From Trypanosoma brucei (lineage: Eukaryota), in contig CH464491.1 in the NCBI GenBank assembly GCA_000002445.1, positions 3,968,001 through 4,032,000 of the forward strand: a stretch of 64,000 bases of DNA. The letters run 5' to 3'. Made by a program: the position numbers and the translations under genes. Positions 3,119-61,970 of the stretch are shown here, piece by piece (position 1 is the first letter of the stretch; every line of letters begins with the position of its first letter). The notes under the pieces are model-generated. The model was not told the origin of the DNA. It saw only the letters and a program-made list of their open reading frames with translations, and searched no databases.

Positions 3119-3166
3119 TATATATATATATATATACATACATACATACATACATACACATACACT
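3119..3166. repeat. Compound microsatellite, (TA)n followed by (TACA)n
   Basis: Read directly: atatatatatatatatatacatacatacatacatacatacacatacac. It sits in a 3.3-kb low-complexity intergenic region (1862-5153). Confidence 0.95.
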
Positions 3167-10888: not shown

Positions 10889-10915
10889 GCGGTCGTAGGC
10901 CTTTCTACTCGTTCC

Positions 10916-10943
10916 ATATATATATATATATATATATATATAT
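10916..10943. repeat. (TA)14 microsatellite in the 5'UTR region of the coiled-coil gene
   Basis: Read directly. It produces the artefactual 'IYIYIYIY' in the ORF-track translation. Confidence 0.95.
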
Positions 10944-12034
10944 TTCACAAAGGTGTGAGAAAAGGAATGATTATATAAATGGTAAGGCGCCAGTGCAAGA
11001 GTTTCCGTGTGCACATATATAAATACTTACCCAACAACACTTGCGTAAGAAATAATTGAAGATAATATCTTTAAAAGAAAACACTTCACGACGTTATCAG
11101 CACTGCACGGGTGAGCACACCACACACTCACATTTTGACAGCACGACAACAAAAAATGCAAGAATTCGTGCCGGCAATATATATAAAAAAAGAAGTTAAA
11201 CGGAGAAGTGGTGAAAAAATGGAAAAAAAAGGCAAATAATGTTTAATAGTGAAAAAGAGGCCCTCTAACGGTTGGCAGTAAGGGGATGAAAGGGAGAAAC
11301 GGGTAAACGGAAAAAAGGGAATGATAAAACTGACAGCACTGACAGTTCCCCTATCCCTTTGCACTAAAAACGAAGCTGTAGGGAGTAAATAGGAGCTTTA
11401 CACACAAAGACACAAACATACACACACACAAAGAAAAAAACAACTCCAGTGTAATTTCACCAAGTCGCAGCAGGAAACAGCGGTAACGCTCATTAGCCCT
11501 TCACTTACTTCAGGTGTTGTAAATCTTACAAGTATTTGGACGGTACAAACCGAGAGGTGGGTGAGCAAAAGAAAGAATAACAATAATAAATGAAATATCC
11601 CTCTCTTCCCACCACCTCCTACACATTATCTATCGTCTCTCTCCTTTGTGTCCCCCCCTTTTTTTCTCTCCTACTTGGTCATGGTATAAGTTCACTACTC
11701 CAAAACAGAAAAGAAAAGAGAAGAGAAAAAAAGCAGAAACAACATACACATACACATAATACTCCCCTCCTCCCTCCCTCATCTCATCTCATCTCATCTC
11801 CTCTCGTGGATTGTGTGGTTGCAGTGGAGTTACCTCCGGCACAATAATACCCGGTGGTTTGTCGCCCTGTCGTCTCACTTCATAATCCGCTGAATCAAAA
11901 AACTGCTTTTGTCCCGGTTGCTGAAGATTACGCAAGCGGGGGTCGCGTTTCTTTGGCATCTTCACACCAGGAGGAGGTGAAGCATTGTCAGACATCACCA
12001 CCTCAGGTAAACAAGAGCTGCTAAGGTGTATTCT

Positions 12035-14372: not shown

Positions 14373-15278
14373 TCACAGCTTGTCCCCGTTGGTGGACGTC
14401 ATAACCGACACCTCATTCTCTGCAACAGGAGTGGTAGTTTCACCCCCCTTCTCAACATCTCCTTCTCCATTTTCGCTGTGGACAAATGTCCAGTAGTTTT
14501 CATCTTTCATTGGACCACAAGGGGTGCCGGGATTGTTGACGAACCTCCCACAGCACACCTCGTTCTCTGGACCAAAGTCATTGAAAAACACGGCTTTCGA
14601 GCTCGCTAGAGGGGTATTTGTGTGGTTATGGCGTATTACTAACACGGCGTCAGCCTTGATGGGGAGATCCCGCATATCCTCTCGGTGGTCCGGGTTTGCA
14701 AAGTCAGCCACCCACATTGCCTCAGCAGACGCACCATCAGGTGAGAAAAATACATCCTGGTGCTTTCCGGTCACTTTAGATGCGCTGAGAGGTCCTTTGG
14801 GCTCGGACAGAAGCGAAAGGGGGTTGTCGCACAGCTCTGGTACTGTCATAATAAAGAAGGGCTGTCCATAATGCACAATATCCTGCTCATCAGGAGGTGC
14901 AGGGATCATGTCAGTGGGACCAGTGGGGGCGGGCACAAGTACAAAACAGTTGCGCAAAGCAGGTCCAGCAGCAGGTGCGGTGGAGCAGGCAACGTGCCAA
15001 CCAGTTGGTCTTAGAGTACGATCCTCAAGGTCAAGTGAGAGAAACCCAAGCGTCGCCGCATTTTGAAGCATAAGAGGAGCATAGAAATGTAAATAACCAT
15101 CCTCATGAGGTTCGGCCATTGGGTATGCTGAGTTGTGGTGCTTTACCTTCGCAATGATACGCTGTGTCTCACGGGCAGCATCTACAACACCACGGTCACA
15201 ACTATCCAGGAGGCGCTTGCGATCCCGCATATACGCCTCCTCCTCAAACCAGTTGCCCAAAAGCGCTTTCCTCGGCAT
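14373..15278 (-). CDS. Hypothetical protein (301 aa), no recognised domain
   Basis: ATG at 15276-15278 (MPRKALLGNWFEEE…). The open frame is clean with coding-like composition. The product looks globular with a Pro-rich linker. Confidence 0.5.
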   Translation of the reverse strand: MPRKALLGNWFEEEAYMRDRKRLLDSCDRGVVDAARETQRIIAKVKHHNSAYPMAEPHEDGYLHFYAPLMLQNAATLGFLSLDLEDRTLRPTGWHVACSTAPAAGPALRNCFVLVPAPTGPTDMIPAPPDEQDIVHYGQPFFIMTVPELCDNPLSLLSEPKGPLSASKVTGKHQDVFFSPDGASAEAMWVADFANPDHREDMRDLPIKADAVLVIRHNHTNTPLASSKAVFFNDFGPENEVCCGRFVNNPGTPCGPMKDENYWTFVHSENGEGDVEKGGETTTPVAENEVSVMTSTNGDKL

Positions 15279-20545: not shown

Positions 20546-22411
20546 TCATGACAAAGACACCCTCCCTTCAAGAAAAGAGATGAGTTTTCTGACACTTGCC
20601 AACAAGGCATCCGCCTCCCCCGAGCCTTCGCTCATTAAGGTTCCTGTGCCTCTTTCAGGAGTTCCTCCAGCAGTATTCACGGCACCGCCCGGTCCCGCCG
20701 AGCATTCACCGATGCTTGTGTTCCCCCCTTCAGAACCGCTCAACTCTGCCCATGGGCTTCCCTCTCCAACACCTCTTTCATGCAAACTTCCCCTTGGGCT
20801 GCTCTCACTCGTGCTCCCCTCCTCCGTAGTTGCATTCCCCCGTGGGGCATTGCTATCGGATGTTGGGGTACCCTCTAAACGCACCTCCTCGGATTCCTCT
20901 CTACCTCCGCCAGTAGACCCACCTTCATTTGTGGGACGCCGGCGAAGTCGTACAATCCCACGAAGTAATCCCCGCAACAGCACAGTAAGACGCGTATCTG
21001 CCGTGTTCGTATCACTCAAATCGGTACTTCCACCCGCATGTATGTCTCCTCGAGACATATGAGCACTGTCCACAGGCCCCACCGATGACTCAACTCGCGA
21101 CGCTAGGCGAGAACGAGAAATGGAAGCCTGGAAAATACTTTCGGTTAAGGGCGGACTGTCAGCCACCGAATGCGCACCAGATCGACGCCAATTGCGGCAT
21201 TGCTTCGCCTTCAAGAGGTAGGGGTTGCACCAAAACTGCGCGACTCGCATTTCAACAGAATCAACACGGGGGTTTATCTCCTCGTGAGAAGACGGCAGAG
21301 ACGACGACACGGATCCCATTGTTAAGGGGGTATGTGGCCGCATCGTGTGCAAGTTCATTTGGTACGTGCTGCTTCCTCTCCTCAAACCACTTGTGGTCCG
21401 CAGTAACGGATCAGTTGAGTGTAGAGACGCCTGAGGGGCACGCAGTGACGCCGCTTTAGATGTTAAGGGCGATGCGCTCTCTGTCTCCAGGGATATCGGG
21501 AAACCTCCTGTACATGCCGGGTGCTGTCTCTCGTAGAGAAAGGAAGACCAAAGGCGGCACTGCGCTTCATACGAAGCAAGTCGTGTCCTTAAGGCCTGTA
21601 GTTGGTCCTCAGCAACCTTCTGTCGCTTCTCCTGCGCAGTGAGCACCTCCTTCTGTTCAATCAACTGCTCTCGTGCATTTCCCAGTTCATACGCTGTAGC
21701 CTTGTTTAGGCACTTCTCACATGCCTCATACTGCTTGAGATGGCTCAGGGCAGCAGCGTGGCACCGGGAGAGGTGCTGCGAATGCACCGAAATTACTTTC
21801 ATTTCGTCTACTATAGGCGATCCCGCCTTGCGAGCCAACATGGACAGTTTGAGCATTACACTGTCAGTCGCGTCAAGAATCTTAAAAGCGCTTTGAGATA
21901 CAATTTCCAGCACAAATGTCAGAGATGTCGATGAGAACTTAATTGGTGGTTGCGGCGTCTCCAATACTGACTCTTTCAGTTGAAAATGTGGTTTGGTGTT
22001 CAACTCGGCTGCCTTTCTCTGCTCAGCTCGCATCACAGTAAGAGTTCTAAGCTTCTGAATCGTTTCGTGTTCGAGCGCACTTTCCAGTGAAACAGAAAAG
22101 GGTCCAGCACCCAGGGACATAACGGGATCATCAGAAATGACCACCTTCTCCCCACCATTAGCTCCCGAGGTTTCCACCAGTGTGTTTAGGTCTTCTAGCA
22201 ACATTGTTGTCATACTACTCTCGTAAACAGCTTCAGATAGGTTGTTTATCCTCTTGACCATCGACTTGGAAATATTCGAAGCTGTCTCCATCCGCCGCCG
22301 CCGGGTGCGGAACATGCTCAGTAGTGTACTATCATCTATCTGAACTACACTATCTGTTCCGCATCTTGCGGTACGTGGCTTTTGGTTCTTGGGTAACGGT
22401 GGAAGGTGCAT
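20546..22411 (-). CDS. Hypothetical protein (621 aa) with a central coiled-coil and a Ser/Gly/Thr-rich C-terminal half
   Basis: ATG at 22409-22411 (MHLPPLPKNQKPRTARCG…). The long open frame has coding-like composition. The coiled-coil segment is '…EQLIEQKEVLTAQEKRQKVAEDQLQALRTRLASYEAQ…'. No known domain recognised. Confidence 0.55.
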   Translation of the reverse strand: MHLPPLPKNQKPRTARCGTDSVVQIDDSTLLSMFRTRRRRMETASNISKSMVKRINNLSEAVYESSMTTMLLEDLNTLVETSGANGGEKVVISDDPVMSLGAGPFSVSLESALEHETIQKLRTLTVMRAEQRKAAELNTKPHFQLKESVLETPQPPIKFSSTSLTFVLEIVSQSAFKILDATDSVMLKLSMLARKAGSPIVDEMKVISVHSQHLSRCHAAALSHLKQYEACEKCLNKATAYELGNAREQLIEQKEVLTAQEKRQKVAEDQLQALRTRLASYEAQCRLWSSFLYERQHPACTGGFPISLETESASPLTSKAASLRAPQASLHSTDPLLRTTSGLRRGSSTYQMNLHTMRPHTPLTMGSVSSSLPSSHEEINPRVDSVEMRVAQFWCNPYLLKAKQCRNWRRSGAHSVADSPPLTESIFQASISRSRLASRVESSVGPVDSAHMSRGDIHAGGSTDLSDTNTADTRLTVLLRGLLRGIVRLRRRPTNEGGSTGGGREESEEVRLEGTPTSDSNAPRGNATTEEGSTSESSPRGSLHERGVGEGSPWAELSGSEGGNTSIGECSAGPGGAVNTAGGTPERGTGTLMSEGSGEADALLASVRKLISFLEGRVSLS

Positions 22412-25532: not shown

Positions 25533-26630
25533 TCAAGGCACCGTAAGGTCCTCCCAGTACGGATTGTCATGATCACTGGACACACCCTCTGGATCGCTCA
25601 GCCAACGCGAGTCACAGCGAAACACTCGGAAGTGATGGTTCAGTTCTTGAATAGCGTGAATTGAGACAGTGGAACCCAAACCACCGTGCACAGGGTTGGG
25701 GAAACAGTAGAAAACACGCCTCACCCTGCTGTGAACAAGGGCCATGGAGCACATTACGCAAGGCTCATGACTAACAAACATGTCCATACCATTGGCGAGG
25801 TACGACGCGTCGCCTTCAACCTCTCGGTCTTTACACTGCTTGCGAGTGACTTCCTTTAACACGAATGTTACAGGATGATCCAGCACCACTCGATTGGATT
25901 TGCGGCACCCGGAATTGGAAACATAACCAAGACACGCTGCACTATTCCCCCGTTTAAGTGCGTGCTCCTCACCACTAGAAACAAGCACGCGGTAACCATC
26001 AGAGGGATCAACTAATACCGCCGCAATCCCAAGGGTTTCGTCCGTGCGAAGCCGCTTTGCTAACGGCATAACCACCGTACGAAAAATGCGCTGGATGCTC
26101 CCCATCTCGCACTCCGACAACTGTGTCGGTGCACGTGGCTTTGGTGTGGCGAAAGGCCAAATCTGACACCATTTGGTCCATTCCTCGGCGGAACTGCGCG
26201 GTGCCCTATCCGGAACCCACACCCTGTGCACGGCAACAGTAGTATCCGCTGCTGACTCAAGTTCTTTCAACGCACTGCTGTCTACGGGACCGCCAACGCT
26301 CAAAAGGAGCTCCAGTATGTGGCTATTTTCTGCCGCTGGGGTACCTAAAGCGGCACTGTTTCTCTCACAGCCGTCAGAGATCGTACTAGTGGCAACGGAG
26401 CTGTCACGTTTATCGCAAATAACACCCCCAGCAAAGCCATCCATGGGAGCAGTGGCAACTCGGGTCGCCGAAGAACGGCGGATACGCTTCAGATGGCAAG
26501 CATGTGGCTTGAGGGGGAGTAATTTGTTGGCAATACTCAGGAACATGGTGCACAAGCGTTCCTGCTGCACGTACGTGGCCAAAGCACTTACAAGTTTGGG
26601 GGGTTCCTCCGGTACCACCACCTCCTCCAT
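25533..26630 (-). CDS. tRNA-specific adenosine-34 deaminase subunit (CDA fold, ADAT/Tad family), probably the non-catalytic ADAT3/Tad3-like subunit
   Basis: ATG at 26628-26630. The C-terminal deaminase domain has zinc-ligand motifs 'DHPV…' (~38 aa gap) '…SHEPCVMCSMALVHSRVRRVFY'. This is a PCxxC motif, and the HAE glutamate is replaced in an H-P-V arrangement, as in ADAT3/Tad3. The long N-terminal extension is typical of ADAT3. Confidence 0.6.
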   Translation of the reverse strand: MEEVVVPEEPPKLVSALATYVQQERLCTMFLSIANKLLPLKPHACHLKRIRRSSATRVATAPMDGFAGGVICDKRDSSVATSTISDGCERNSAALGTPAAENSHILELLLSVGGPVDSSALKELESAADTTVAVHRVWVPDRAPRSSAEEWTKWCQIWPFATPKPRAPTQLSECEMGSIQRIFRTVVMPLAKRLRTDETLGIAAVLVDPSDGYRVLVSSGEEHALKRGNSAACLGYVSNSGCRKSNRVVLDHPVTFVLKEVTRKQCKDREVEGDASYLANGMDMFVSHEPCVMCSMALVHSRVRRVFYCFPNPVHGGLGSTVSIHAIQELNHHFRVFRCDSRWLSDPEGVSSDHDNPYWEDLTVP

Positions 26631-29577: not shown

Positions 29578-31806
29578 TCAACTATCAGCCGCTTCCGTGA
29601 TTAGACGCAGCCGTTCAACGGCCATTGCGAGCAAGGCAAATGTAGGAATGAATGCACGAAGGTGCGCGCCACGTTCCAATTCAAAAGTTAGAATATCCGA
29701 AATTTTATCAAAGTCTTCTACTGTCTGCGCTACTGGGATTGCCGTCCCAAAACTTTCCAAACCTTCGTAACGCCGTTTAATTATATCATTCACGGAATTC
29801 TGTAAGGCAATAACAGCTTCCTTATGCTCACGAAGGGAACACTCTGAAAGTTGGCACTTTTCCTGCCGGAGTTTGCCGGAAGCTCCCCGGCATTTTAGCT
29901 CTTTTTCCATTTTCCCAAGTTGATCAAGCAGAGACTTGCATCCGCCTGTGAGCGAAGTGGCAACAGCCTCGACGGTATCGCATGGTCCAGTAGCGAAGTT
30001 CATTGCGACAGGGTTGCCATCACAGGCAGCATTGCTACACCCACTTCTCCGTTGGACTTCCCGAAGCTTCAGTTCAAGTGATGCATTCCTCTGACGGAGC
30101 TCCTCAAGTGCCCACGAGAGTGCCGAGTTGTTGTCGCGGTCGCGGGTTAAATTAAGGTCGCTTCCCCTCACCTTTTTTTCAGGACTGCGCACAGCGTCTT
30201 TTATTGGGATCGATTCACCTGTTCCTTCAACTGGTGCACTAAAAAGGGGATTATTCCCTTCCCCACACTGCAGCCGTTCCCGTAGCCGCTGATTAGCTTT
30301 GACAGCCTCATTCAACTTGCTATGCCATTCCTGGGTTGCACGCCGAAGCGCACCTTGACCCTCTTCCAGTTTCCCAACTCTAAGAACTAAACTGGATACC
30401 ACCTGCCTCACACGGTCCATACCCTCCTCTCCATTCGACGATCCCTCTGCAGTGGGAATTTTCATATCTTCCCGGTTAACTTGCACTGAGTGATTGGGGG
30501 GTTTGCACATGGCCGGAATCTGCCTTTTATCCACCTTCTCCCCTGGGGTGAGGACATCACCCATCAAATTCGTGTCGTCGCATAAAACTTCCCCTTTTGG
30601 CATCGGCTTTTTGGATGAACCGACATTGATTTCTGTTTCTCGCACTTCGGGTGAGGCAGCCGCACTAATCTTCCCTTTCATTGTAGCGTCACGCGACCCG
30701 GCACATGAACCGCGCGCAGTAGATGACTTGTCCGAAGGTTTGTGAAGGCAACTCGCATAGCTGCCATTTTCTATCCCTCTAGGTATCTGCGTGCACCTCT
30801 GACCACTCTCCCTTCGCTCCAGCTGTCGCGCCCCTCTCACGGAATCATCCGCCCCACAGGGCCCAAAACTGGAGGCAGAAAGCAAAACCTGACTACTGGA
30901 AAGCGAAGGTCCGCCAGAAGCACCCACCTGTTTTCGTCGCAGCCTTCCCTCTGCGGTGGTGTAGTATATTACCGACATAAACCGAATAAGCCGCAAACTT
31001 CCACGGGGAGCGGGCTGTGGATCAGGAATAGCTACGAGGTGGGTCACAGCGGCAGGTGGAATGAAATCACGCATTGCGGAAGTGAAGAACTTGCAAGACT
31101 GAAAAGTTTGGCTTTTACCCACACCACCGCTGCGCAGCAACAAAGACAACTGGAGCAAAGCCCCAGAGTCGCACCCCATTTCGGCAACCACAAGTGAACC
31201 ACCACCTTCGAGTTCAATCCGAAGCAGTAAAACCGATTCCCGCTGCAACGTTCCTCGAATCAGATGCACATGCCGCTCGTGGATGAGCTGCACGAACGCG
31301 CCCCACTCTGAGGATAATCCCCCACAATTCACGTCGAAGCGCTGCACCTCCTCCCACCAATGTATATCCTGCTGCTTCAATAAGTCCCGAGCCTTCGTCC
31401 CCTTCACCCTGAACGATATCGCGGATACCAGTACTTGCGATGGGTGCTGAGCACCCGTAAAAACTGCTGACAGCAACCGTGTAAAGAGATCCATCGCAAC
31501 TTCCAGCTTCTCTCCCGCTGCCTTTACAGCCCCTTTTATAATTTTGCTGCCGCAACCTCCCTCGTCATCGTCTTCAGGCAACACAACCACCAGGGCAGCA
31601 TTTCCGCCGTCCCGAAGCCTTGCGAGTAGGGGATCAACCACGTGTCCCACTGCGTCGTGGGCCGGGCTCAACACGTGCGAAAAGAAATGGGGACCTGAGC
31701 ACTGGTCGTGCCGTACCACCAAACCATCTTCAAATACGCCATCGAAGAAGTCCGTACAGCGAGCCTCGTGAGGAATAATGCAAAAAGTGCGTAAGGTCGG
31801 GTCCAT
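29578..31806 (-). CDS. Hypothetical 742-aa protein with a C-terminal coiled-coil and an N-terminal ~220 aa that may be a degenerate, probably ATPase-dead, kinesin-like motor
   Basis: ATG at 31804-31806. The N-terminal region carries kinesin-like blocks in the right order. They are 'FFDGVFEDG' (~res 21), a P-loop-like 'DDDEGGCGSKIIKG' (res ~80-92, against GQTGSGKTYTMxG), a switch-I-like 'NCGGLSSEWGAFVQLI' (against NxxSSRSHxIFxI) and a switch-II-like 'LLLRIELEGGGS' (against LxLVDLAGSE). The C-terminal third is heptad-rich (…LRQRNASLELKLREVQRR…KELKCRGASGKLRQEKCQL…). Confidence 0.5.
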   Translation of the reverse strand: MDPTLRTFCIIPHEARCTDFFDGVFEDGLVVRHDQCSGPHFFSHVLSPAHDAVGHVVDPLLARLRDGGNAALVVVLPEDDDEGGCGSKIIKGAVKAAGEKLEVAMDLFTRLLSAVFTGAQHPSQVLVSAISFRVKGTKARDLLKQQDIHWWEEVQRFDVNCGGLSSEWGAFVQLIHERHVHLIRGTLQRESVLLLRIELEGGGSLVVAEMGCDSGALLQLSLLLRSGGVGKSQTFQSCKFFTSAMRDFIPPAAVTHLVAIPDPQPAPRGSLRLIRFMSVIYYTTAEGRLRRKQVGASGGPSLSSSQVLLSASSFGPCGADDSVRGARQLERRESGQRCTQIPRGIENGSYASCLHKPSDKSSTARGSCAGSRDATMKGKISAAASPEVRETEINVGSSKKPMPKGEVLCDDTNLMGDVLTPGEKVDKRQIPAMCKPPNHSVQVNREDMKIPTAEGSSNGEEGMDRVRQVVSSLVLRVGKLEEGQGALRRATQEWHSKLNEAVKANQRLRERLQCGEGNNPLFSAPVEGTGESIPIKDAVRSPEKKVRGSDLNLTRDRDNNSALSWALEELRQRNASLELKLREVQRRSGCSNAACDGNPVAMNFATGPCDTVEAVATSLTGGCKSLLDQLGKMEKELKCRGASGKLRQEKCQLSECSLREHKEAVIALQNSVNDIIKRRYEGLESFGTAIPVAQTVEDFDKISDILTFELERGAHLRAFIPTFALLAMAVERLRLITEAADS

Positions 31807-33488: not shown

Positions 33489-35354
33489 CTAGCTGTTTCC
33501 CTTTGGATTGAGGACGAGCACCGATAAACATTTCTTCTTCAGCACTCCGCTTGCAGGAACCATACCGTTCATTAGCGCCTGTATTTCTTTTTTTAATTCC
33601 AACAAGGTGCTCGGCAGTATTCGGTGGTTTACCGTAGAAATGTAAAAGAGTATTAGAGCAACACGCTCAATGAGGAACGGGTCAACGACCAACTGCTGTC
33701 TAACTAATCGTTTGTAGAGAGTTGCTGACTCTCGCTTCATGACATGATCTCGCTCATCAACAGGGAGTTGAGGTACTTTAACAAGCATAATTCTGTTTAT
33801 GTCCCTGCAGATTGGCACGTATTGATCCCGCAGGGACGCCAATTGTTTCCGGTACTCGGGCCGCAAACAGCGTACCAAACCGATGCTCGGCTCCCAACCC
33901 GGAACAGGCCGACCAAAGAACCCGAATTTCTCTTCTCCCTGCAAAATCTCCCTTTCGTAGTCCCGAAAGTCCTCCAGTAATCTTGCAATCTGCTCGTCCC
34001 TGCACACAGCACCAGATGAAAAAGCAGGGTGATACGAAAAATGCACCTCATGCTGGAATGCGGGAGGCACTAGTCGTCTATACATGTTAAACTTCTCCGC
34101 CTCCATGTGAAAATGACCCACTATGATTTTCACCACCTGCTCATCCTCCTTCGGGTAACCCTCAACTGCACTCCCAAACCCGCTACTTACGCCAGGGCTC
34201 TCTTCTCCCGAAATCCCGGGTTCACGATGAACTTCAATGAAGTTACCTTGCGAAAAAGTATTGTCGGAACCTAATTCGCCGCACGATAAGGCACCACTTC
34301 CCGGGGAGCACGTGCCGCTCACCTTCAGTTTGGGTGTGTGACGTCTATGGGATCTGTCGGCCAACGCTGATGATGCCCTGAGCAACAAAAAATCCGAAAG
34401 GAAAAACTTTCGTAGCTCTCCTGCAGCCTTGAACCGATGATAATCCCCTATCCCGAGCCCAGGACGCACTACACCAAGTTCGGAGAGGTTGTTGTCAACG
34501 AAGAAAACAACGTCCCACAACCCACTCATTGCAAGTGAACGCACGATATCCATCTTTCGAAATATTGCACCATCTAAAAAAGCGGTGTGTGGTGACGGAA
34601 CAACGAGACTAGACAGACTGGAAAGGGAAATCCCCCACAAAGAAGGCCGGAATGCCAACCACCGTACACAACTTTCGTCTTCCTCCATCGTGTATTGCTC
34701 GGTGGCAGTAAAAAGAGCTTCGATACCCATCGACACTTTCCTTGGGGCATGCGCTGTGGCAATTCGTATGATGGGAACGTCACTGCCATCAAGAGGACTT
34801 TTCTTCACGCTAGTAACAACTAACGGTCGTGAGCAACAACTACCATCGACGCGGCCTTTTTTCGCTTTGACACCTCCCGGTGTGTCACCATGAAATTTTG
34901 CATCTCCCGTAAAGAATGAAGTAAATCGCTGAAGTTTTCCGCCCCTGGGCCCTGGAACAAACAAGTCATCCACACTACCCCGTGTCAACAGTAAATGTCT
35001 TGCTGGGCAGCTACCAAATGTATGAAGGAGATTATCAGTCTCAAACAGCACATGCTGACGACTGCCCTCCCGACCAGATGTCACAAACGTATCGTCTACA
35101 TCCCAAACGCATAAAACACTTGGAGAACGCGAGGCATTACCATGGAATTGTCGTGAAATGGAGGGTGATATGACACCGTTATCCTGTCCAGATTCTGCTT
35201 GTCCACCTTCAACGGCTCCGCTGAAGGACATCATAGTTTTCCGGACATCTGCAAATGACCTCAACTGCACGAGTTCGGTACTGATGGTTACGTAAGGTGG
35301 TGCAACTCCCGATGTAACACGCTCAGATTCCGAGGCCGGAGAAGATGCGATCAT
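33489..35354 (-). CDS. Large hypothetical protein with a HAD-like phosphatase signature (DxDxT)
   Basis: The ORF-track start is TTG inside an A/T homopolymer region. The candidate ATGs are 35382-35384, 35352-35354 (MIASSPASESER…) and 35232-35234, and a polypyrimidine tract plus AG lies between the first two. 'SVLCVWDVDDTFVTSG' is HAD motif I (hhhhDhDxT), and a downstream '…WDVVFFVDNNLSE…' is a possible motif IV. The rest is unrecognised. The start is uncertain to within ±120 nt. Confidence 0.5.
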   Translation of the reverse strand: MIASSPASESERVTSGVAPPYVTISTELVQLRSFADVRKTMMSFSGAVEGGQAESGQDNGVISPSISRQFHGNASRSPSVLCVWDVDDTFVTSGREGSRQHVLFETDNLLHTFGSCPARHLLLTRGSVDDLFVPGPRGGKLQRFTSFFTGDAKFHGDTPGGVKAKKGRVDGSCCSRPLVVTSVKKSPLDGSDVPIIRIATAHAPRKVSMGIEALFTATEQYTMEEDESCVRWLAFRPSLWGISLSSLSSLVVPSPHTAFLDGAIFRKMDIVRSLAMSGLWDVVFFVDNNLSELGVVRPGLGIGDYHRFKAAGELRKFFLSDFLLLRASSALADRSHRRHTPKLKVSGTCSPGSGALSCGELGSDNTFSQGNFIEVHREPGISGEESPGVSSGFGSAVEGYPKEDEQVVKIIVGHFHMEAEKFNMYRRLVPPAFQHEVHFSYHPAFSSGAVCRDEQIARLLEDFRDYEREILQGEEKFGFFGRPVPGWEPSIGLVRCLRPEYRKQLASLRDQYVPICRDINRIMLVKVPQLPVDERDHVMKRESATLYKRLVRQQLVVDPFLIERVALILFYISTVNHRILPSTLLELKKEIQALMNGMVPASGVLKKKCLSVLVLNPKGNS

Positions 35355-36786
35355 GAAGATGTCTTCGCTAAAGAGATATAACATAAAAAGAAAATGTAGA
35401 GTATACCCATTTCCCAACAAAGGGTTTGAGTGCTTGTCATCGAAAGATTTAATTGTTGGGTGGCGGGAATATCTTAAGAGACAGGACACAAGTTTCTCCA
35501 ACTTGGAAAGTGGAGGTCGTGCAGTAGCGGCAAAAAAAAAAAGAAAAAAAGCGACCTGCATATCCACCAACAGTAACGACGGAGCTTCACAAGATAAACA
35601 GTTAAACACAACAAAAAGCAACCTCAAAAAAAAAAAAATAAAAAACAAAATAAAAAAAAGGCATGCGCCAACAAGAAAACAAAGTGAGACTTGTGTGAGA
35701 CGAGCAACTCCTCTTTAGTGAGCACATGGCAGCTGTCCACTTCGTGCAACGCCAAAGGTGGTACAGACTGAAAAAGCGCGGTGGTGAAAACCTGATAGCG
35801 TAGCCACAGGACAACGGCACACAGTTAGTGCCCCTCACACCATTTTAACACATCCGCCAAACACTCATCAAATATTCACATCCTCAACGGGGCCACCGGA
35901 ACCGCCAACGGATTGCACGAAACTCACAGACGACACCGTATGCCGCGCACCACTGGAAAAAAAAAAGGCATATCAAGGTCTCTATCTTCCCTGAAAGCAT
36001 ACGCCCAGTTTAACAATTCACACACTCACTTGCATCACACACAAGCTCCTACTCTTCTTTTTTTTCTTTTTCTTTTTTTTTTTTGCTATCCCCTTCACCC
36101 GCCATACGCATAGAGACAACTTCACACAGTTGATTCAAGTGATTTCAAAGGTTTCATCACAACACAACCACACACGCACGTAACATTTGTTGCGGTGCAT
36201 GAGCGAAAGTGACAAAAAAGCATTACCACTGAGAACCCACATTAAGTGAGAGGAACTATTTGTATTAAAGAGGAAGGAAGGGACTGGCGAGTGGAAACAA
36301 AAAAAGAAAAAAAAAAAGAAGCGCACGACCACTGAATGGAAGGCAAACACAACCCGGAGTGAATAAATGTTATCATCCCTCGCTCATGGTTTAATAGTCC
36401 ATCGAGTATTCTCATATGACACAGAAATACGTCCGACTACAAACCACAAGATAGAGATTTTAAACATACAGTAACAAAATTGCCAGGCTATGAAATGTAA
36501 AAATATACATATGCACTCAGAAGACGCTAGGTCCTCTACCCCTACTGCGGGGAAAGCAAAGAGAGAAAAAAACACTTTGTTACTCCGTACACAAACTCTA
36601 CTGTCAACTTTGTTCGCACTATCTTACTGTGATGTTTCAGACTAAACAACAACATGATGGGTATTCCCTCCTTAACTCTTCGTACATACTCATTTTGCAC
36701 GTTGGAGGTCCGATTTATTCCCAGTTTTTTTCCAAAAAGGAGTACATCGCAACGGTTTTTTTTTTTTTGGTGGGGTAGGAAAAATG

Positions 36787-39700
36787 TCATTTTGTTTGAT
36801 TTCGTGCATCCACGCCGATGGGGTGTAAACTCATAAGCTTATATAACCACTTGAAGCCACGCTCCATAGCTTGTTGGGTCCACTTATGAGTATCATGGGT
36901 AATGTCCTTTAGCCATGTTCGTCCACGTGAATCCTTCACTCGCTTGCAGAAGGTTTCTTTGCAACTTTCTTCCGCAAGGCTCCGCATTAGCGTTAAGTTC
37001 ATCAGCGCTGTCAACTCTCCTATGTGTTTAATTCCGTCGAGCGCATTACGGCGGACAATGTGAGAAAGAAGTTGGTGCATAATGCCCGCGTACGACCGCA
37101 CTTCGAGAAACCAATCAGCAGTTTGTATAATAAATCTCGTACAGGAATCGTCTTGTTCCCCCTCAGTCTGCACTTCCGGCGCGGGTTCTTCTTTCATAAA
37201 GTATTCAATGCAACCCTCGAGGTCAGAGTCGAATCGGACATAGGAAGGTAGGACATGCTCGGCTAACGTCCGTGTTGTTAAAAGCATACCATAATCGATG
37301 TGGAATATAGCACCACTCGGATGAATCATAACATTCTCACGATGTCGATCACCGATTGCAAATATATAATTCAGCAATATGAAAAACTTTGCGGAGCACA
37401 TGAAACACTCACGGGCAAGAGCAGCTGATTTTTGACTATCGAAGTCTTTAACTATCAAACTATTAGGTTGTCCACACTGATGTCCCGCTCCTCGTACCCT
37501 TTCATGAAGTTGAGGTTCCGACACCGAGTCCCCCAGCTGGCCTTGTGTCTTCTCAAGTGACACAAGGTGCTGAAGCAGGCGACCCTCTTTGTCCTTTCCA
37601 ATCACACGGTGAATTGTCTGCCCGTCCTTTACCACCTCTATCAAACCCGAAGACGGCGAAAGCAAAATAACGCGATACGTGGGAAGGACCACGTTGCCTA
37701 TTTGCTTGTAGAGCACCCACCGCAAAAACCGCGAGGTGACACACATCACTTTATCCTTTTCAAGGTTTTCCCTCTTGACAAGAATACCCCGCGTCACACC
37801 TTCTGCATCAACGAGCGGAATCGAAACAGGCCGTTGACTAGATTCCATTATCTTGATACCCCCCAAGTCGATGTGTGTTATAACCACACTACTGTCAAAC
37901 GGAAACAGCATAGGCGATACGGCACACAGCCCATTGCGTTCCTGCGCAATCCTCGATGAAGTTGACAAACAACCAGAGACGGATTCGCCGGTCGTTTCCG
38001 CCAAACCCCCCATTAGCCCACTGTTCGAGAGCTGAGTAACAAGCGCCCTCTGATACTCCCTGGCATCCCCACCCACCGGGACAAGATTCACCTCAGGTGT
38101 GATCAAGTTTAAAAACTTAAGTGTATTGAGAAATTTCTGATGTGATTCCGGGAATGTGTCAGCGTTTCTTTCAATGACGCGCTCCTGTAGTGTGCGGTAG
38201 CTGAATTCATTGACCCTCATTCGCGCTGACGCCTCTTGACAAATAACGATCGCCAACTGTGGATCGAGCTTCGACAAGGAGAGTAGAACGGACACAACAC
38301 GGGGCTGGCAGCTCTCGAGATCAAAGATATCCAACAGGAGCAACACAACACATTCTCGTATGCACGTATCCAGCGACGTAATCCAATCTCGCAGCAGGTG
38401 CTTTGTCACTATTTTCCGTATTTTTTCCGCTGTTGCATGGCCTTGTGGTGCACGGTGCAAACACTCCAGAATTTTGATACCAAAGAACGGTGGTAGCATC
38501 CGACCGCAAGTGCGTGTGCACAACATATACCAGTGGCTCAATGGCGGCTTCCAATAGAAGTCACGAAGCTGTGGTGACATTGGCGGCGGTGCGGCTCCCT
38601 TTGCCGTTTGCTCGATTGCTGCGCAGGCCTTCTCAACAAGTTCATTGTTCTCCCAGTCAATAGATATGAAGAGAAATATGAGAGGCTCGGGGTGGCCAAC
38701 CAAAAGATTAACGCTACTGGCAAGGATCTGTGCTGTCCGTTTTGGTATCTTCATGTTCCACATGTTCTCGTAGAGAGATGATCTGTAGTCACTGAGGCAC
38801 AACTCGGCTGCAGCCCTCCACTGCTCGTTGACGGTACGTAAGAGTGCGATATCCACGATAGATAGGCCGGCACAAACGAATGTGGTGCAAAGAAATGTGT
38901 GTTTATTTATCATCATTGCTTGATCGTAGCACCTCTTGCATGCGTGACGCATTCTGCCCTCCTCCGGTTGACCAGGCTTACTTAACTTGGCCAATGACTT
39001 GTCTAGCATCCATGACGTGCACTGCTCACACATGCGCCGGCCACAGCAACGGCAGTTACGCGCCCGAACCGCAGCAAACAACAGAGCCGGCCATGAGGAG
39101 AAAGATCTCTTGCACTCTGAGCACGTCTTAGCCGAGTCTTCCCCCTCCCACACAGGGTTCTGGTAAAGGGTGTGGCCTTTTTTTGCGAAGTCCTCCCCAA
39201 GATACGATGCTTCAGTCATAGTCGTCGAACTGGGGTCAATGGATTGCGTCAAATCCCCAACGTGATAAAATTCGGGATAGAAATAGCGATCCTTCTTCAA
39301 CCATGCCACACATGGGAGCTGATGGTTGGATTTGTCAGCTCCCGTGGCTATTAGCACATCTTTTGATGGCTGGAGCGACCGTGGCTGGGGCGAACCCGGT
39401 TCAGCACTGCCACCACCGATTCTAAATGCAGTCATGACCTTCTCCCGGAAAGCTAAGACTTCACATAACTTCTCTTTGCTGTTTAATGACGCAAGCGAAC
39501 GGATATCAGTGTCACAAAACACTTCCTCCTTGTATATTCGACCAAATTCACCACAAAGGACGGCAAACGTTTTTTCCATTTCTAGACGCGCACTTAACTC
39601 TAAAACCTCCATAAATAATTCCCTGTTGCGTGTCAATTCGCACGCATTGTAGCACGATACGGTTCCGTTCCGGGACAATGTTGTCTCGGAAAAAAAAACA

Positions 39701-40128
39701 CAAGCCTGGCTGTCTTCTCTATGTGGTGCCGCGCTCGTGGAAAAAGAAGACAAAACTTCGTCATCTGCTTCCGACATTCTCGACTTAACATCAGCGCGGG
39801 TCTGACGCCGAGCACGGGAGAGTTTTGAACCTCTCAGATCTAACGCTACTATCCTTTTTAACTCCTCTATGGCAACTTGAGAGCCAAATTCAAGCTGTAC
39901 TGGTTGCTTCTGAGATATCAGTCGCTTGAGATAAGCGCTCTCAGCGAAGTCCAGTGCGCAGTGGGTCCCGTCTCCAAGAATCACATCTACCGCAAGCATG
40001 TCGAACTCCTGTGTGGAATCCCGTACTCCATCTGCGTCCCGAGGTAAATCGGCGCCCACACCATCAGTCGGACGGCCCGGCAGTGGCTGCTCATACGAAG
40101 TCACGGAAACTTCCGCCGACTGGGTCAT
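36787..40128 (-). CDS. Phosphatidylinositol 3-/4-kinase family protein with an internal FYVE-like zinc finger
   Basis: The ORF-track start (40269) lies in the 5'UTR polypyrimidine tract. The ATG at 40126-40128 (MTQSAEVSVTSYEQ…) follows the tract and AG dinucleotides. The PI3K/PI4K catalytic loop is 'FAIGDRHRENVMI' (GDRHxxN) and the activation segment 'IFHIDYGMLL' (HIDFG-type). The FYVE-like Cys cluster is 'CSECKRSFSSW…RARNCRCCGRRMCEQCTSW…RHACKRCYD', eight Cys in a C-x2-C…C-x2-CG…C-x2-C…C-x2-C arrangement. Confidence 0.8.
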   Translation of the reverse strand: MTQSAEVSVTSYEQPLPGRPTDGVGADLPRDADGVRDSTQEFDMLAVDVILGDGTHCALDFAESAYLKRLISQKQPVQLEFGSQVAIEELKRIVALDLRGSKLSRARRQTRADVKSRMSEADDEVLSSFSTSAAPHREDSQACVFFSETTLSRNGTVSCYNACELTRNRELFMEVLELSARLEMEKTFAVLCGEFGRIYKEEVFCDTDIRSLASLNSKEKLCEVLAFREKVMTAFRIGGGSAEPGSPQPRSLQPSKDVLIATGADKSNHQLPCVAWLKKDRYFYPEFYHVGDLTQSIDPSSTTMTEASYLGEDFAKKGHTLYQNPVWEGEDSAKTCSECKRSFSSWPALLFAAVRARNCRCCGRRMCEQCTSWMLDKSLAKLSKPGQPEEGRMRHACKRCYDQAMMINKHTFLCTTFVCAGLSIVDIALLRTVNEQWRAAAELCLSDYRSSLYENMWNMKIPKRTAQILASSVNLLVGHPEPLIFLFISIDWENNELVEKACAAIEQTAKGAAPPPMSPQLRDFYWKPPLSHWYMLCTRTCGRMLPPFFGIKILECLHRAPQGHATAEKIRKIVTKHLLRDWITSLDTCIRECVVLLLLDIFDLESCQPRVVSVLLSLSKLDPQLAIVICQEASARMRVNEFSYRTLQERVIERNADTFPESHQKFLNTLKFLNLITPEVNLVPVGGDAREYQRALVTQLSNSGLMGGLAETTGESVSGCLSTSSRIAQERNGLCAVSPMLFPFDSSVVITHIDLGGIKIMESSQRPVSIPLVDAEGVTRGILVKRENLEKDKVMCVTSRFLRWVLYKQIGNVVLPTYRVILLSPSSGLIEVVKDGQTIHRVIGKDKEGRLLQHLVSLEKTQGQLGDSVSEPQLHERVRGAGHQCGQPNSLIVKDFDSQKSAALARECFMCSAKFFILLNYIFAIGDRHRENVMIHPSGAIFHIDYGMLLTTRTLAEHVLPSYVRFDSDLEGCIEYFMKEEPAPEVQTEGEQDDSCTRFIIQTADWFLEVRSYAGIMHQLLSHIVRRNALDGIKHIGELTALMNLTLMRSLAEESCKETFCKRVKDSRGRTWLKDITHDTHKWTQQAMERGFKWLYKLMSLHPIGVDARNQTK

Positions 40129-40134
40129 CAAATC

Positions 40135-40205
40135 TCGGCTGCCTCCACACACCGCGACGAAATTATAGTAAACAGGGGAAAAGAAAAAACAAACGGGGGA
40201 AAAGT
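40135..40205 (-). promoter_or_regulatory. Polypyrimidine tract plus candidate AG splice-acceptor upstream of the PI-kinase CDS
   Basis: On the minus strand, the tract 'ctacttttcccccgtttgttttttcttttcccctgtttac' is followed by 'ggAGgcAGccgAGatttgATG'. This supports the ATG at 40128 and not the ORF-track start at 40269, which lies inside the tract. Confidence 0.45.
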
Positions 40206-40574
40206 AGTTAAACACAGAAAGTATCGCTAGTGATGGGACTCGAATTATCGACAGGGGATATATACACATGTATGAGTTCTAACATGGAGTATGAAAAAAG
40301 AAAAATAACATAGTCCGTGAACGTCAATGGAAAAAAAAAAAGGAAAAAGTCTGGTCCCTTATGCAAACACGTGCCGACGCAAGTCAACCCCCCACCACTC
40401 AACTACAACTCACCGTACGATGTAACAACGCGACCACCTCACAGAAATGCTACAAGAACCAGATTAACTGGGCAGACAACAACTGGAGGTCGGAATCAAC
40501 TTAGGCGAGAACTCCGCTTCGTATGATTTATATTGTTTGCGGGCACCCACTGTATTTCACTGTCAACCACCCCT

Positions 40575-42452
40575 TCACCTTCGCATCGACCAGAAGTAAT
40601 AACTGTCCCACATGACCTCACGGCCTCCAGTTACCTTGTCGTAGATGAAAACCCCAATTCCTGCCAAAATGGAGAGACACAAAAACCCAAAAGTAACGTA
40701 TGTTAAAATTGGAACTGAAGAAGATGTTAATGAAAAAAACGAACACCCCAGTGGATCATCCATCAACTTTCCGCTGTAGATGTAAACAATGGTGAAGACT
40801 ACTTGCACAGCCGCGGCTGGCCAACAAGCAGCCCAGATAACCCTGTGTGCATCGAACACGAGAACTACAACTAACAACACGAAACCAACCACAGTGGCGA
40901 AGGAAGCGGTTGATACAAAGACGACGGTCTCTGTGTGGCACTGACCGATTACCGGAAACGTTAACAGAACGGCGAATAAGCAGCACTCCAAATAACAAGA
41001 AGTAGTTGCAATGAGTATACGGTTCGTGACACTCCTCGGCCTCAGCGAAACCTGCTTCGTGGCTACAACCGCAAAACCGAAGCGGTTACAAGAGAAGTTG
41101 CATATCGCGTTCCGGAGAAACAGGTACGTGGATACACCATACGAGGTATAGTTTGTGATGGCTAAGATTGTGTGCCCAATGAAAGAATCACCGTACGCAT
41201 AGAAAGCTGCGAGGTAATACTGTAAAAGCAGCTGGGGTATGGAAAACAAACAGGTGTGAAGAAGCAAAACATTCGTCAGACCGTTGTATAAATCATACCG
41301 TATAACGAAATACTTAGCCTTGTTCTTTAACAATTCGTACCTTAGCGTGACGTACACGAGCCAGACCTCGAACACGGGGACACACGGAACCACTTTTGTT
41401 GTGTTGTCCGGGTAGTCCCACACGCGATCCTCATAGTCACGTATTCGCCCCTCCTCAGATGTCATCACCGCCACAATACTCACAACGTACCCAACCACAT
41501 AACACACAATTGTCCAACTACTGCATTCAATGTGTCCCACCACCCGCCAATGATAGATAACCCATCCCACACACGCAAGATGCAAAAACACAGCGATCAA
41601 ACCCACCCATGTTAGCGCCATATCCAACACAAAACAAATATGTAAAAAGAACCCCAACAGCCAATTGGGGGGTGGTAGGTTCCGCAAGAGGTGTGGGTTG
41701 TCGTACAGCATTTTCACAAACTCGAGACCCGCGTAGCGGCACGAAAGTGCCTGCTCTTTTGTAAAGGTAGCACTGGGAGCATTGCACAGCACTTTTAGAT
41801 AATCAATGTTTCCTGGGTTAATACGGCCCCCGAAGTTTTCGTCGCCCACCATCAGAGAATCAATCTCCTCTTGGATAATTTGCTGTACACCGACATCATT
41901 CACATCAACACGTCCGGACTTCAATAGCGTCTTCGTAAGATGGCGATCCCCTACTGCAGCCTGCAAAATATCCCCGTTGATTCTGAAATTTTCAGCGTGA
42001 AGCGATGCCTGTATAATACCCATATATGAATCATTTGGTGTCCGCCGATACTGAAGAATTACTTCGCGGAGGTCGACACCTACGTCGTCCGAAGAGCACA
42101 AGGAATTGTCATTGCACAGTAAGGGGGGCCGGGCAGGACCAAATGGATCATGGACCGCTCTATCGTCCCACTGTTCATCGTTAGACGTGGAATCATGGGG
42201 AACTTGCGCAACATTGAAGGGTTCGCTACTCCCCAGGTCCCGCCTTCCAATCAGCGCGGACATTATATAAGATCCTGCGGTGTCAAACAGTCTTCGAAGC
42301 TGTGAGGGACTCCCCGCTTGATCACCAAACGATGGTTGAAGTGGGATAGTGGTCTGACTGTCCTCCATAACCGGCTCCACCCTCGCGATGTGTGAATTCT
42401 GTTCATCGTCAGATGAGTCATAGAAAGCCACATTAAACGGATCCCGTGGCAT
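40575..42452 (-). CDS. Hypothetical polytopic membrane protein (625 aa). It has a ~240-aa N-terminal soluble region followed by at least 8 predicted transmembrane helices.
   Basis: ATG at 42450-42452 (MPRDPFNVAFYDSSDDEQ…). The C-terminal two-thirds is a run of hydrophobic segments (…WLLGFFLHICFVLDMALTWVGLIAVFLHLACVGWVIY…LLTFPVIGQCH…FVLLVVVLVFDAH…). No family recognised. Confidence 0.6.
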   Translation of the reverse strand: MPRDPFNVAFYDSSDDEQNSHIARVEPVMEDSQTTIPLQPSFGDQAGSPSQLRRLFDTAGSYIMSALIGRRDLGSSEPFNVAQVPHDSTSNDEQWDDRAVHDPFGPARPPLLCNDNSLCSSDDVGVDLREVILQYRRTPNDSYMGIIQASLHAENFRINGDILQAAVGDRHLTKTLLKSGRVDVNDVGVQQIIQEEIDSLMVGDENFGGRINPGNIDYLKVLCNAPSATFTKEQALSCRYAGLEFVKMLYDNPHLLRNLPPPNWLLGFFLHICFVLDMALTWVGLIAVFLHLACVGWVIYHWRVVGHIECSSWTIVCYVVGYVVSIVAVMTSEEGRIRDYEDRVWDYPDNTTKVVPCVPVFEVWLVYVTLRYELLKNKAKYFVIRYDLYNGLTNVLLLHTCLFSIPQLLLQYYLAAFYAYGDSFIGHTILAITNYTSYGVSTYLFLRNAICNFSCNRFGFAVVATKQVSLRPRSVTNRILIATTSCYLECCLFAVLLTFPVIGQCHTETVVFVSTASFATVVGFVLLVVVLVFDAHRVIWAACWPAAAVQVVFTIVYIYSGKLMDDPLGCSFFSLTSSSVPILTYVTFGFLCLSILAGIGVFIYDKVTGGREVMWDSYYFWSMRR

Positions 42453-49280: not shown

Positions 49281-51330
49281 GGGATGTAGATACTTTTGAT
49301 CTTAAGAAATCTTTTTACAAGAAAAGGGAAAGACTCTCCCGTTCTGTCCCTTTGATCGTTCCCCTGGACGTTCACAAGGTCGATGTTTATTTCGTTAAAG
49401 ATAACCAATTGTTTCTTTCTTATTTCCTTCTTACTCCTTAATTTCTCTTCCGGTTTACAGCTGTCTCCCTTTGTTCACACCTTACGTTTGCAATCGTACT
49501 CGTGGCTATACCACGCGGTAAACCCAAGTGGAGAAAAAGTGTTTCAGAGAAAATTTGATTGGTGTGCTGTTGGGGGGGGGGGAGAGTTGCGCACCAATTC
49601 ATATTGAAGCGAAAACGGTAGCAGAAGTAACAGCAACAATTTGTTTTAAAAGGGAAGCAATGCCCCAGAAGCATTACCCAAAATAAACTACTGTGTAAAT
49701 ACAGGGGGTTCATAATTATGCAGTCGATAAATAAACTAAGAGGACGTGGAATCGCCGTAGAAACCAAACCAACACACGAAAAAAAAAAGAGACTGTGTAA
49801 AAACACGAACTAATAACAAAAGCAGGACAGGCAGTAGAAAATATGCTGTTATTTGTTTCATAGTAGCATATATTACTTCCATGCTAAAACAAAAAGATGG
49901 TTGATGTGTCCGTGGTCGTAGACAAACCCCCGGCGTAGCAACTTGCAAAACGGAAAAAACAGGCAACATGGTAAGTGTTTCACGCACGTTAGAACACAGT
50001 TTACATAGAGGGAGAGCAGGCCACATGCAATTAATTTCGAAATAAAAAAAACTGTTATCCGAGAAAAATTGGTGGGAGAGTAGCTATCCTGTGAGTTGCA
50101 CCAGTTCAGTTACAGTCAAAGGATATGTCACACTGCGCCTGTAAGTTGTTCAAAATGCTCTGACCGCTCCATCTGAGGGTCAGATAAACCACTTACGAAG
50201 AGCCCATCTTTGCTTTGTCGTCTACGTGGGTTCAGTCATACAACAGCATATGGTACGTCCGTGACCCACCGCGGAAAACGAAAACTGTCACTGCACAGAA
50301 CATCGCATAACTTCGGCAACCGAGGTCACTGGAAGTGCGTATGATAGTGGAACAAGTATAGATACAAGTGTGCACCGGGTAACGTCACTTGTGGTGCCGA
50401 AACCGAGACGACTGTATTCGGTAGCAACATCATTTCTCGCATCACTGCGTGATCAAGAATGCACAACAGCCATTTTATTGTATAAATGCGAGCGTACACA
50501 CAACAGTACGAACTTTTTTAAAATTTAAGCTGCAGAGTTTAGTACACAGAATGTGAGGAGGCTAATCCCTTGGGACCGTTACCTAACAAGATTCCAGAAA
50601 ATTTAACTTTCTAGAAACGATTGTACAATGTAGTCTCCACCCTTAACCCTGTAGCAGTAAAAGCTGCAGGTACTCGAGAGGTAGGTCACTATTCTGTCAA
50701 GCTGTCCCCTGCTCGAACCATAATAGAAGATCGGGTGTGCAAATGCGTGAGAGAAGTAAATTTCTTCATCCGCTGGCCTGGGGCGAGGGTCTCGGAAGCC
50801 GTGACAGCATACGACAAACGTATGACACATTGTAGCGCCCTTCTTTATCACCTGTATCCATGATAATCCCGTTTAGTCATACTGTATAAACTAGTCCAGC
50901 AAAATTACGCAATCACACCTTCAATAACCTACAGCGGTACTCTGCAGTGGGCAGGCTCCGGCGTTAGCGTGGGTTCCAACGGCATGAACGAGTGATAGAA
51001 ACCCTCCCTCGCTACGTAGAAAAGAACACAGTTTTGCGCATGCAAACTACACACAATATTCAACAACGAGAAAAAAACTAACACTTGGTCGCGGCGCAAT
51101 GTCCTTTGGAAAAGCTGTATATATGGCAAAAGCAGGGTCACAAATTTTTGAAAGCAAGGTCGTCCCATTTGTTGCAGGTTGTAATTTTGGCATTATCACA
51201 TGAGAAGATAGTGCGTGAAGAGGCGACACTTCTAGTAGAGCCCGGTTACCCAAGAAAAAAACAAGGAACACAAAATAAGAGAGTACCTTCTTAGCCAAAG
51301 AAGTGGAAGAAACGACATAAAATACATATA

Positions 51331-51723
51331 TCACGATTCTTTCGTTCTTGTTCCTTTTTCCTTCCTAAGCAACTCGTTGTTGACCATAACATAAGGATGT
51401 CCACATATTTTTTTGCTGTGCCGCGTATTGTTTCTAAGAAGGTACTGGGATAGCCAAGATATAGGGTGCGTATTTCCAGTAGGTCCGTAGCGATGGGAAA
51501 CCTCGTCGGGTTCCAAAGCGCACTGCTGCTGACGCTTTACTAATTCGTACAGGGCTGGAACGAGTGTTGGGAAGACGTTTTCACGCAAATATGTGACATT
51601 TTCTCCCTCACACGATGCATTGACAGCTGTCTCGACATCCTCATATCCGCACCAAATCTGCTCTTCAATCAGCCGAATCATCATAGCCTCACTAAGAGCC
51701 TGTGTATCCGCCGATACCTCCAT
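51331..51723 (-). CDS. Small Dpy-30-motif (RIIα-like dimerisation/docking) protein
   Basis: The ORF-track start is TTG. The ATG is at 51721-51723 (MEVSADTQALSEAMMIRLIEEQ…). 'VTYLRENVFPTLVPALYELVKRQQQ' fits the Dpy-30 motif (YLxxxVxPxLxxGLxxLxK). Confidence 0.5.
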   Translation of the reverse strand: MEVSADTQALSEAMMIRLIEEQIWCGYEDVETAVNASCEGENVTYLRENVFPTLVPALYELVKRQQQCALEPDEVSHRYGPTGNTHPISWLSQYLLRNNTRHSKKICGHPYVMVNNELLRKEKGTRTKES

Positions 51724-61800: not shown

Positions 61801-61970
61801 CAGTTCACGCGGAGAATGGTAAAGACGAAAAGTTGTAATCTTCTTTTAGAAGCACTACACAAATGAAAGCTAACGTGTGCAGGTGGTGACGCATGCGCTT
61901 GGATACTCAGTTCTCCGGGAGACGACGCTTTGCGTACACGAGAATACGCAAGAGCCTGTGAGTGGAAGGG

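Follow-up and report, generated by a model that had tools for sequence, protein, structure and literature searches.

A probable pseudokinesin with a predicted kinesin fold and a dismantled nucleotide pocket, encoded on chromosome 11 of Trypanosoma brucei

The stretch of DNA analysed here (the window: 64,000 nucleotides of the Trypanosoma brucei contig CH464491.1, positions 3,968,001 to 4,032,000 of the forward strand) contains, at 29578-31806 on the minus strand, an uninterrupted open reading frame (ORF) with an ATG start and 742 codons followed by a stop, as an earlier note on this DNA had described it. The product is in all likelihood a pseudokinesin: residues 1-295 are predicted to retain the fold of a kinesin motor domain in which the nucleotide pocket has been dismantled, and the role favoured for the protein lies within a microtubule-based complex, as its non-motor subunit or as an adaptor. 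The protein is identical (0 differences) to T. brucei brucei TREU927 XP_829589.1 / EAN80477.1 / UniProt Q381Q4, which is encoded on the 5.26-Mb chromosome 11 contig and annotated as "hypothetical protein, conserved"; the T. b. gambiense and T. equiperdum proteins share 99% identity with it. The gene is laid out as follows, in coordinates of the window.

29578..31806, minus strand: complete coding sequence, 742 codons and stop, identical to XP_829589.1 / Q381Q4
30922..31806, minus strand: kinesin motor-homology domain, residues 1-295, from the predicted fold
30421..30921, minus strand: Ser/Gly/Pro-rich linker, residues 296-462, barely conserved
30007..30420, minus strand: basic stalk, residues 463-600, from conservation along the alignment and a crude heptad heuristic
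29581..30006, minus strand: conserved C-terminal domain, residues 601-742, from family conservation

The predicted model makes it almost certain that residues 1-295 adopt the kinesin fold. AlphaFold2, run without templates on a family alignment of 20 sequences (the N-terminal heads of the 20 members), gave a model with a predicted local distance difference test score (pLDDT) of 86.7 and a predicted template modelling score (pTM) of 0.87, in which low confidence is found mainly at residues 81-100, at 231-240 and in the final ~20 residues. In a Foldseek search with this model the top 50 matches were all kinesin motors (E-values from 3.8e-14 to 8e-12, probability 1.0), and 284 matches were returned at E <= 1e-3. 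The predicted elements are, in order, beta1 (5-10), alpha1 (52-65), beta3 (69-76), alpha2 (98-118), beta4 (124-133), alpha3 (161-184), beta6 (191-199), beta7 (204-211), alpha4 (214-225), alpha5 (239-248), beta8 (253-259) and alpha6 with an extension (267-295); in the model they follow the beta1 to alpha6 order of the kinesin superfamily, with the sheet packed between three helices on each side. Model and motif scan together place the head among the pseudokinesins, that is, domains with a kinesin fold but no nucleotide-binding site. Fold prediction and structural comparison, proposed in the earlier note as checks on a kinesin-like N-terminus, therefore returned the kinesin fold, over a domain of ~295 residues instead of the ~220 first suggested.

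Alignments of the family with known kinesins are colinear. When the family profile was compared with the PDB, the five best matches were all kinesin-5 motors (E 0.03-0.19), and the kinesin-5 profile alignment sets the motif GQTGTGKT on the family sequence "lPaaeee…". An hhalign comparison with three PDB kinesins (KIF3B 3b6u, OSM-3 7a40 and KIF5C 3wrd) aligned 236 columns colinearly from beta2 to alpha6, at a non-significant E of 0.062 and a probability of <1%, and an alignment with a single, approximate KIF5B sequence was likewise colinear and non-significant. The non-catalytic hallmarks of kinesin heads are conserved in the family and occur in the same order as in kinesins: IP after beta1, FxxV in beta2, PLL in alpha1 (PLV in kinesins), DLL after beta4, an arginine at the end of alpha3, IPDP after beta8 (ISP in kinesins) and LRF in alpha6 (LRFA in kinesins). 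Four orthologues, from T. conorhini, Leptomonas seymouri, Leishmania martiniquensis and Angomonas deanei, are labelled "Kinesin" or "Kinesin motor domain-containing" in UniRef; the T. brucei entries are still listed as "hypothetical" or "uncharacterized". Searches of PDB sequences with phmmer gave no match for either the head or the full protein, and an exhaustive HMMER search, run with the family profile over 1.84 billion representatives, recovered only 25 proteins, none of them a canonical kinesin. A profile word-index search with a 3-sequence alignment returned nothing, its candidates having probably been swamped by low-complexity words.

The N-terminal domain is very likely to be catalytically dead. 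The 20 family members all lack a Walker A motif, both as G....GK[ST] and in the relaxed form [AG]....GK[ST]; the switch I slot contains no SSRSH in any of them, and D..G.E is likewise missing from all 20. Topology, secondary-structure order and the profile alignments locate the corresponding slots, together with the region equivalent to the microtubule-binding face, as listed here.

31516..31578, minus strand: beta3-alpha2 loop, residues 77-97 (PEDDDEGGCGSKIIKGAVKAA), the P-loop slot by topology, without Walker A
31237..31254, minus strand: switch I (L9) slot, residues 185-190 (GTLQRE), a short loop without SSRSH
31165..31185, minus strand: switch II slot, residues 208-214 (AEMGCDS), placed by profile alignments and secondary-structure order
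31063..31167, minus strand: alpha4-L12-alpha5, residues 214-248, with moderate family conservation (LLQQLTLIL ... RTYPPRxPL)

The P-loop slot directly follows beta3 (…ALVVVLPEDDDEG…) and is indel-rich and hypervariable, with pLDDT values of 58-69. Across the 20 members the segment between beta3 and the beginning of alpha2 ranges from about 19 to 76 residues without any conserved sequence, and its conservation score of 0.28 is the lowest in the domain core, where the other elements score 0.45-0.77. In members with a short loop, such as that of Bodo, the slot reads "CPGSSGEAST"; in Trypanosoma it opens with an acidic run (PEDDDEG, PEDEADG or PDDEKDE). Switch II has a family consensus of V-D-x-G-S, plausibly a relic of DLAGSE, with the aspartate present in 16 of the 20 members; the Trypanosoma sequences lack this residue, and T. 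brucei has E209. Since alpha4 starts only ~2 residues past the switch II remnant, loop L11 is nearly deleted. In true kinesins L11 is an important microtubule contact and alpha4-L12-alpha5 forms the microtubule-binding face, a region in which the T. brucei copy diverges more than the rest of the family. The degeneration of the T. brucei head also extends to the replacement of the switch II Asp by Glu and the loss of the 'PP' of L12.

The proposal of a kinesin-like but catalytically dead N-terminal domain is thus borne out by the model, by the Foldseek matches and by the missing motifs; the three motif strings on which it had been founded are not. The earlier note had read these strings as degenerate versions of the P-loop and of switches I and II, and they lie at the following positions.

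31531..31560, minus strand: GGCGSKIIKG (read as P-loop), residues 83-92, in the correct loop, with no orthologue counterpart and a chance-level score
31297..31323, minus strand: GGLSSEWGA (read as switch I), residues 162-170, at the N-terminus of helix alpha3
31195..31212, minus strand: LEGGGS (read as switch II), residues 199-204, in the beta6-beta7 hairpin (L10)

When the N-terminal 300 residues were shuffled 1000 times with their composition preserved, at least 99.7% of the shuffled sequences matched GQTGSGKT, SSRSH or DLAGSE as well as or better than these strings, so that the resemblance is one of chance. GGCGSKIIKG does fall topologically in the P-loop slot, but the other two are misplaced, by ~22 residues for switch I and ~9 for switch II; W168 and G169 within GGLSSEWGA are conserved in the family, yet lie outside switch I. 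Conservation of the P-loop string in orthologues, which the earlier note proposed to check, was not recovered either, the loop being hypervariable throughout the 20 members. The actual sequence does worse than 95-98% of the shuffles in its best matches to switch I and switch II, and worse than 95% when SSRSH is sought over the whole domain; because they fall so low, the catalytic motifs are better described as erased than as degenerate.

Beyond the head, which is conserved over residues 1-285 in the full-length alignment, the linker is probably flexible or disordered, to judge from its composition and low conservation. The stalk contains short coiled-coil-like segments at ~463-490 and ~550-590 by the crude heptad heuristic, and sub-threshold matches to coiled-coil Pfam families occur in the orthologues; by the same heuristic the coiled-coil content of the T. 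brucei protein, described in the earlier note as a coiled-coil protein, is modest. The stalk has an isoelectric point (pI) of 9.5 and the head is slightly acidic (pI 6.6). The stalk is shorter in T. brucei than in the orthologues, which carry ~100 extra coiled-coil residues, and of the complete full-length members retrieved that of T. brucei, with 742 residues, is the shortest. The shorter stalk and the further degeneration of the head suggest that constraint may have been relaxed in the T. brucei lineage.

The C-terminal domain contains the blocks SLxxGCxSLxxQL, EHxxAVxxL and ATAxD..L.FE.ER..HLRAF.PTFAQLAVA.EHL.MR. Across kinetoplastids the stretch FE.ER..HLRAF.PTFAQLAVA.EHL.MR is the most conserved of the whole protein, exceeding the kinesin-like head. 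Residues 601-742 have no relative in the PDB or Pfam, a search with the core block matched only one 64-residue fragment, and neither a PH domain nor any other Pfam domain was detected in the 742-residue protein. This domain is probably the functionally defining module of the protein, for localisation or partner binding.

Named orthologues come from Trypanosoma, Leishmania, Leptomonas, Angomonas and Bodo saltans, and because members extend to Bodo saltans the family predates the trypanosomatids. The Leptomonas gene is syntenic with that of T. brucei, with a deaminase gene two genes downstream. Six substitution sites among the T. brucei-group sequences all fall outside both the head and the last C-terminal block, three of them in the linker (296-462), a pattern that lends weak support to constraint. 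Some database records of family members deserve comment. The precomputed annotation of the T. conorhini orthologue (P0002) lists the Pfam family PF28159.1, for which a literature search was empty. Members from JGI/IMG metagenomes (P0020 and P0037-P0039) are named 'regulator of replication initiation timing' or 'uncharacterized protein YukE'; such bacterial-style names on eukaryotic-looking pseudokinesins are likely to be mis-annotations, perhaps transferred via the coiled-coil regions. In the EukProt protein P0024 (2134 residues) the motor-homology domain is at 1450-1688, preceded by a long N-terminal part with many hydrophobic stretches; either two genes have been merged in the model or the domain occurs here in another architecture.

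These features suggest how the protein might work. With a variable acidic insert in place of the P-loop, a short unrelated loop where switch I should be, no more than a remnant of switch II and L11 almost deleted, the pocket would be dismantled, and kinesin-style ATP binding, hydrolysis and stepping along microtubules would therefore be impossible. The head would instead serve as a nucleotide-independent module that binds the microtubule lattice or a partner protein. It would be tied to the short dimerising coiled-coil segments by a linker of ~170 residues, probably flexible, which would in itself make coordinated stepping impossible, and the conserved C-terminal domain would dock the protein and set its localisation or cargo. 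By precedent, the protein would most likely act within a microtubule-based complex, as an adaptor or as a subunit without motor function.

The precedents are three. KIN-B, a dead kinesin-like protein of the T. brucei chromosomal passenger complex, works with the active KIN-A (PMC10987093); TbPH1 works with the active KifX2A at the microtubule quartet, and yeast Vik1 pairs with Kar3 (bioRxiv 10.1101/2021.09.29.462327). It is because each of these works with an active kinesin that an adaptor or non-motor subunit is favoured here. In saying that trypanosomes have inactive kinesin-like proteins, one of them linked to the chromosomal passenger complex, the earlier note is in line with this literature (PMC10987093; bioRxiv 10.1101/2021.09.29.462327), and many kinesin-related proteins below detection thresholds have been reported in trypanosomes (bioRxiv 10.1101/2021.09.29.462327).

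The protein is distinct from each of these. Identity with KIN-B was considered and rejected, as the gene record sets the target apart as a different, unnamed gene of chromosome 11. The KIN-B gene, Tb927.7.5040, lies on chromosome 7. KIN-B has been counted among the kinesins on sequence grounds since 2006-2008, whereas the present family escapes Pfam. TbPH1 is the closer likeness in layout, being a kinetoplastid kinesin-like protein with a coiled coil and an N-terminal motor that is probably dead (bioRxiv 10.1101/2021.09.29.462327), but its Walker A motif is recognisable, with two substitutions, where that of the target is wholly gone, and it has a C-terminal PH domain, where the C-terminal domain of the target is unrelated to any Pfam family. 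The target is thus not of the TbPH1 type, which is marked by the PH domain, nor does it belong to the Vik1/Cik1 family proper, with which it shares neither sequence homology nor a C-terminal motor-homology domain. Canonical kinesins (PF00225; KIF9, Kip3, KIF2C) differ from it in possessing a P-loop, a switch I and a complete switch II, which it lacks, and the L11 that is nearly absent from it, and it lies below every sequence-based threshold of detection.

Several observations count against this interpretation. Pfam PF00225, the other check proposed in the earlier note, gave no match in any member, even at E <= 10, whether in the T. brucei protein, two full-length orthologues or the 20 family heads, and the sequence methods as a whole (Pfam, hhalign at E 0.062, profile against PDB at E 0.03) fall short of significance. 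The fold is assigned from a predicted model, and AlphaFold2 given just 3 sequences produced an unusable one (pLDDT 45.6); the residue-level positions of the slots derive from secondary-structure order and weak alignments. The coiled coil lies ~170 residues from the head, unlike that of dimeric motors. The near-absence of L11 and the diverged L12 of T. brucei caution against assuming microtubule binding, and no data on a partner, localisation or phenotype of the protein were found in the literature or the TrypTag supplements.

The empty Pfam search, the non-significant hhalign result, the low-confidence model from 3 sequences and the chance-level score of the original motifs would also be expected of a protein unrelated to kinesin, whose apparent fold is a modelling artefact or a generic alpha/beta sandwich of the P-loop-NTPase kind; we consider this very improbable. 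A highly divergent motor that is still an active ATPase, with a non-canonical nucleotide site, appears more remote still: the switch II aspartate is kept in 16 of 20 members and certain divergent Walker A motifs do remain active (bioRxiv 10.1101/2021.09.29.462327), but GK[ST] is missing from a P-loop slot of about 19-76 residues in all 20 members, switch I is absent and T. brucei lacks even the switch II aspartate.

Two further accounts accept a dead kinesin head and differ over what it does. It may belong to a static homodimeric microtubule-associated protein (MAP), essentially the version of the earlier note, in which a pair of dead heads would hold on to the lattice as if in rigor, independently of nucleotide, and so crosslink or anchor microtubules without an active kinesin as partner. 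A kinesin-fold head joined to coiled-coil-like segments and a conserved tail would suit such a protein, as would the moderate family conservation of alpha4, L12 and alpha5 and the basic stalk (pI 9.5), but the nearly deleted L11, the diverged T. brucei L12 and the slightly acidic head (pI 6.6) do not, and the dead head of KIN-B did not localise to the spindle (PMC10987093); a static MAP is accordingly judged rather unlikely. The same behaviour of KIN-B, whose dead head does not bind the spindle on its own (PMC10987093), would fit a kinesin fold repurposed for protein-protein interaction only, with both ATPase activity and microtubule binding lost, in a scaffold positioned by its C-terminal domain and possibly not cytoskeletal at all. 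The erased catalytic loops and L11 and the top ranking of the C-terminal block in conservation are consistent with such a scaffold. It is harder to reconcile with the conservation of the head from Bodo to Trypanosoma, kinesin-like features of alpha4 and L12 included, and no data suggest an alternative ligand, so that we also place it well short of an even chance.

The reading as a non-motor subunit or adaptor has parts of unequal strength. That the protein is microtubule-associated is evenly balanced, and its pairing with an active kinesin, argued by analogy with KIN-B, TbPH1 and Vik1, is a tentative suggestion. It is similarly speculative that the proteins form an undescribed, ancient and kinetoplastid-wide pseudokinesin family, with an erased pocket and a novel, more strongly conserved C-terminal domain, which provides the obligate non-catalytic partner or targeting subunit of one of the orphan kinetoplastid kinesins.

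The gene is probably Tb927.11.15310, a locus assigned by counting ORFs between two named neighbours. The ORF at 25533-26630 (deaminase by Pfam) corresponds to ADAT3 (Tb927.11.15280) and that at 36787-40269 (FYVE and PI3/PI4-kinase by Pfam) to PI3K 1 (Tb927.11.15330); as four ORFs lie between them, Tb927.11.15310 is the most probable identity. A literature search found no mention of this locus or of the protein accessions, the ID is not among the entries of the TrypTag supplements, and no paper on the kinesin repertoire of Leishmania was found in the literature search.

The ORF is part of a run of same-strand ORFs, as is typical of a trypanosomatid polycistron. Its upstream neighbour, 33489-35648 (minus strand, 719 residues, probably Tb927.11.15320), matches neither Pfam nor any PDB sequence, and other ORFs without a Pfam match are found at 40575-42452 (minus, 625 residues), 20546-22411 (minus, 621 residues) and 5154-6305 (minus, 383 residues). 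Two genes are probably flagellar or ciliary: 8840-11014 (minus) encodes a DUF4200-domain protein (E 1.9e-24) and 14373-15278 (minus) a CFAP161-like protein (E 1.8e-11). Because trypanosome polycistrons are not functional operons, no link between these genes and the pseudokinesin is implied. The window is densely coding except for ~12.6 kb at 49300-61900, which has short ORFs only (<=194 residues). GC skew is about zero at 50-52 kb, positive at 56-58 kb and negative elsewhere in the window; Rfam and tandem-repeat scans of the window, this region included, were empty. Positions 2001-4000, between an acyltransferase ORF and the next ORF, are AT-rich (GC 0.33 against 0.40-0.54 elsewhere).

Pseudokinesins are an established category, so that no general concept is changed, and some orthologues had already been labelled kinesins automatically. 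What is new is the fold-level annotation of the T. brucei gene with a corrected map of its catalytic slots, together with the family-wide erasure of the pocket and the novel conserved C-terminal domain. Certain "hypothetical conserved" proteins are, on this evidence, kinesin-fold pseudo-motors that are invisible to Pfam and recovered by structure prediction. T. brucei has about 47 kinesins. Both KIN-B and TbPH1 partner active kinesins in parasite-specific processes, namely targeting of the chromosomal passenger complex and the microtubule quartet. The protein described here is a candidate third example, conserved across kinetoplastids, and its recognition puts right how Tb927.11.15310 and the orthologous genes are annotated. 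If the proposal is true, it would add a third pair of dead and live heads in trypanosomes, and would point to such pairing as a general design principle of their expanded kinesin repertoire.

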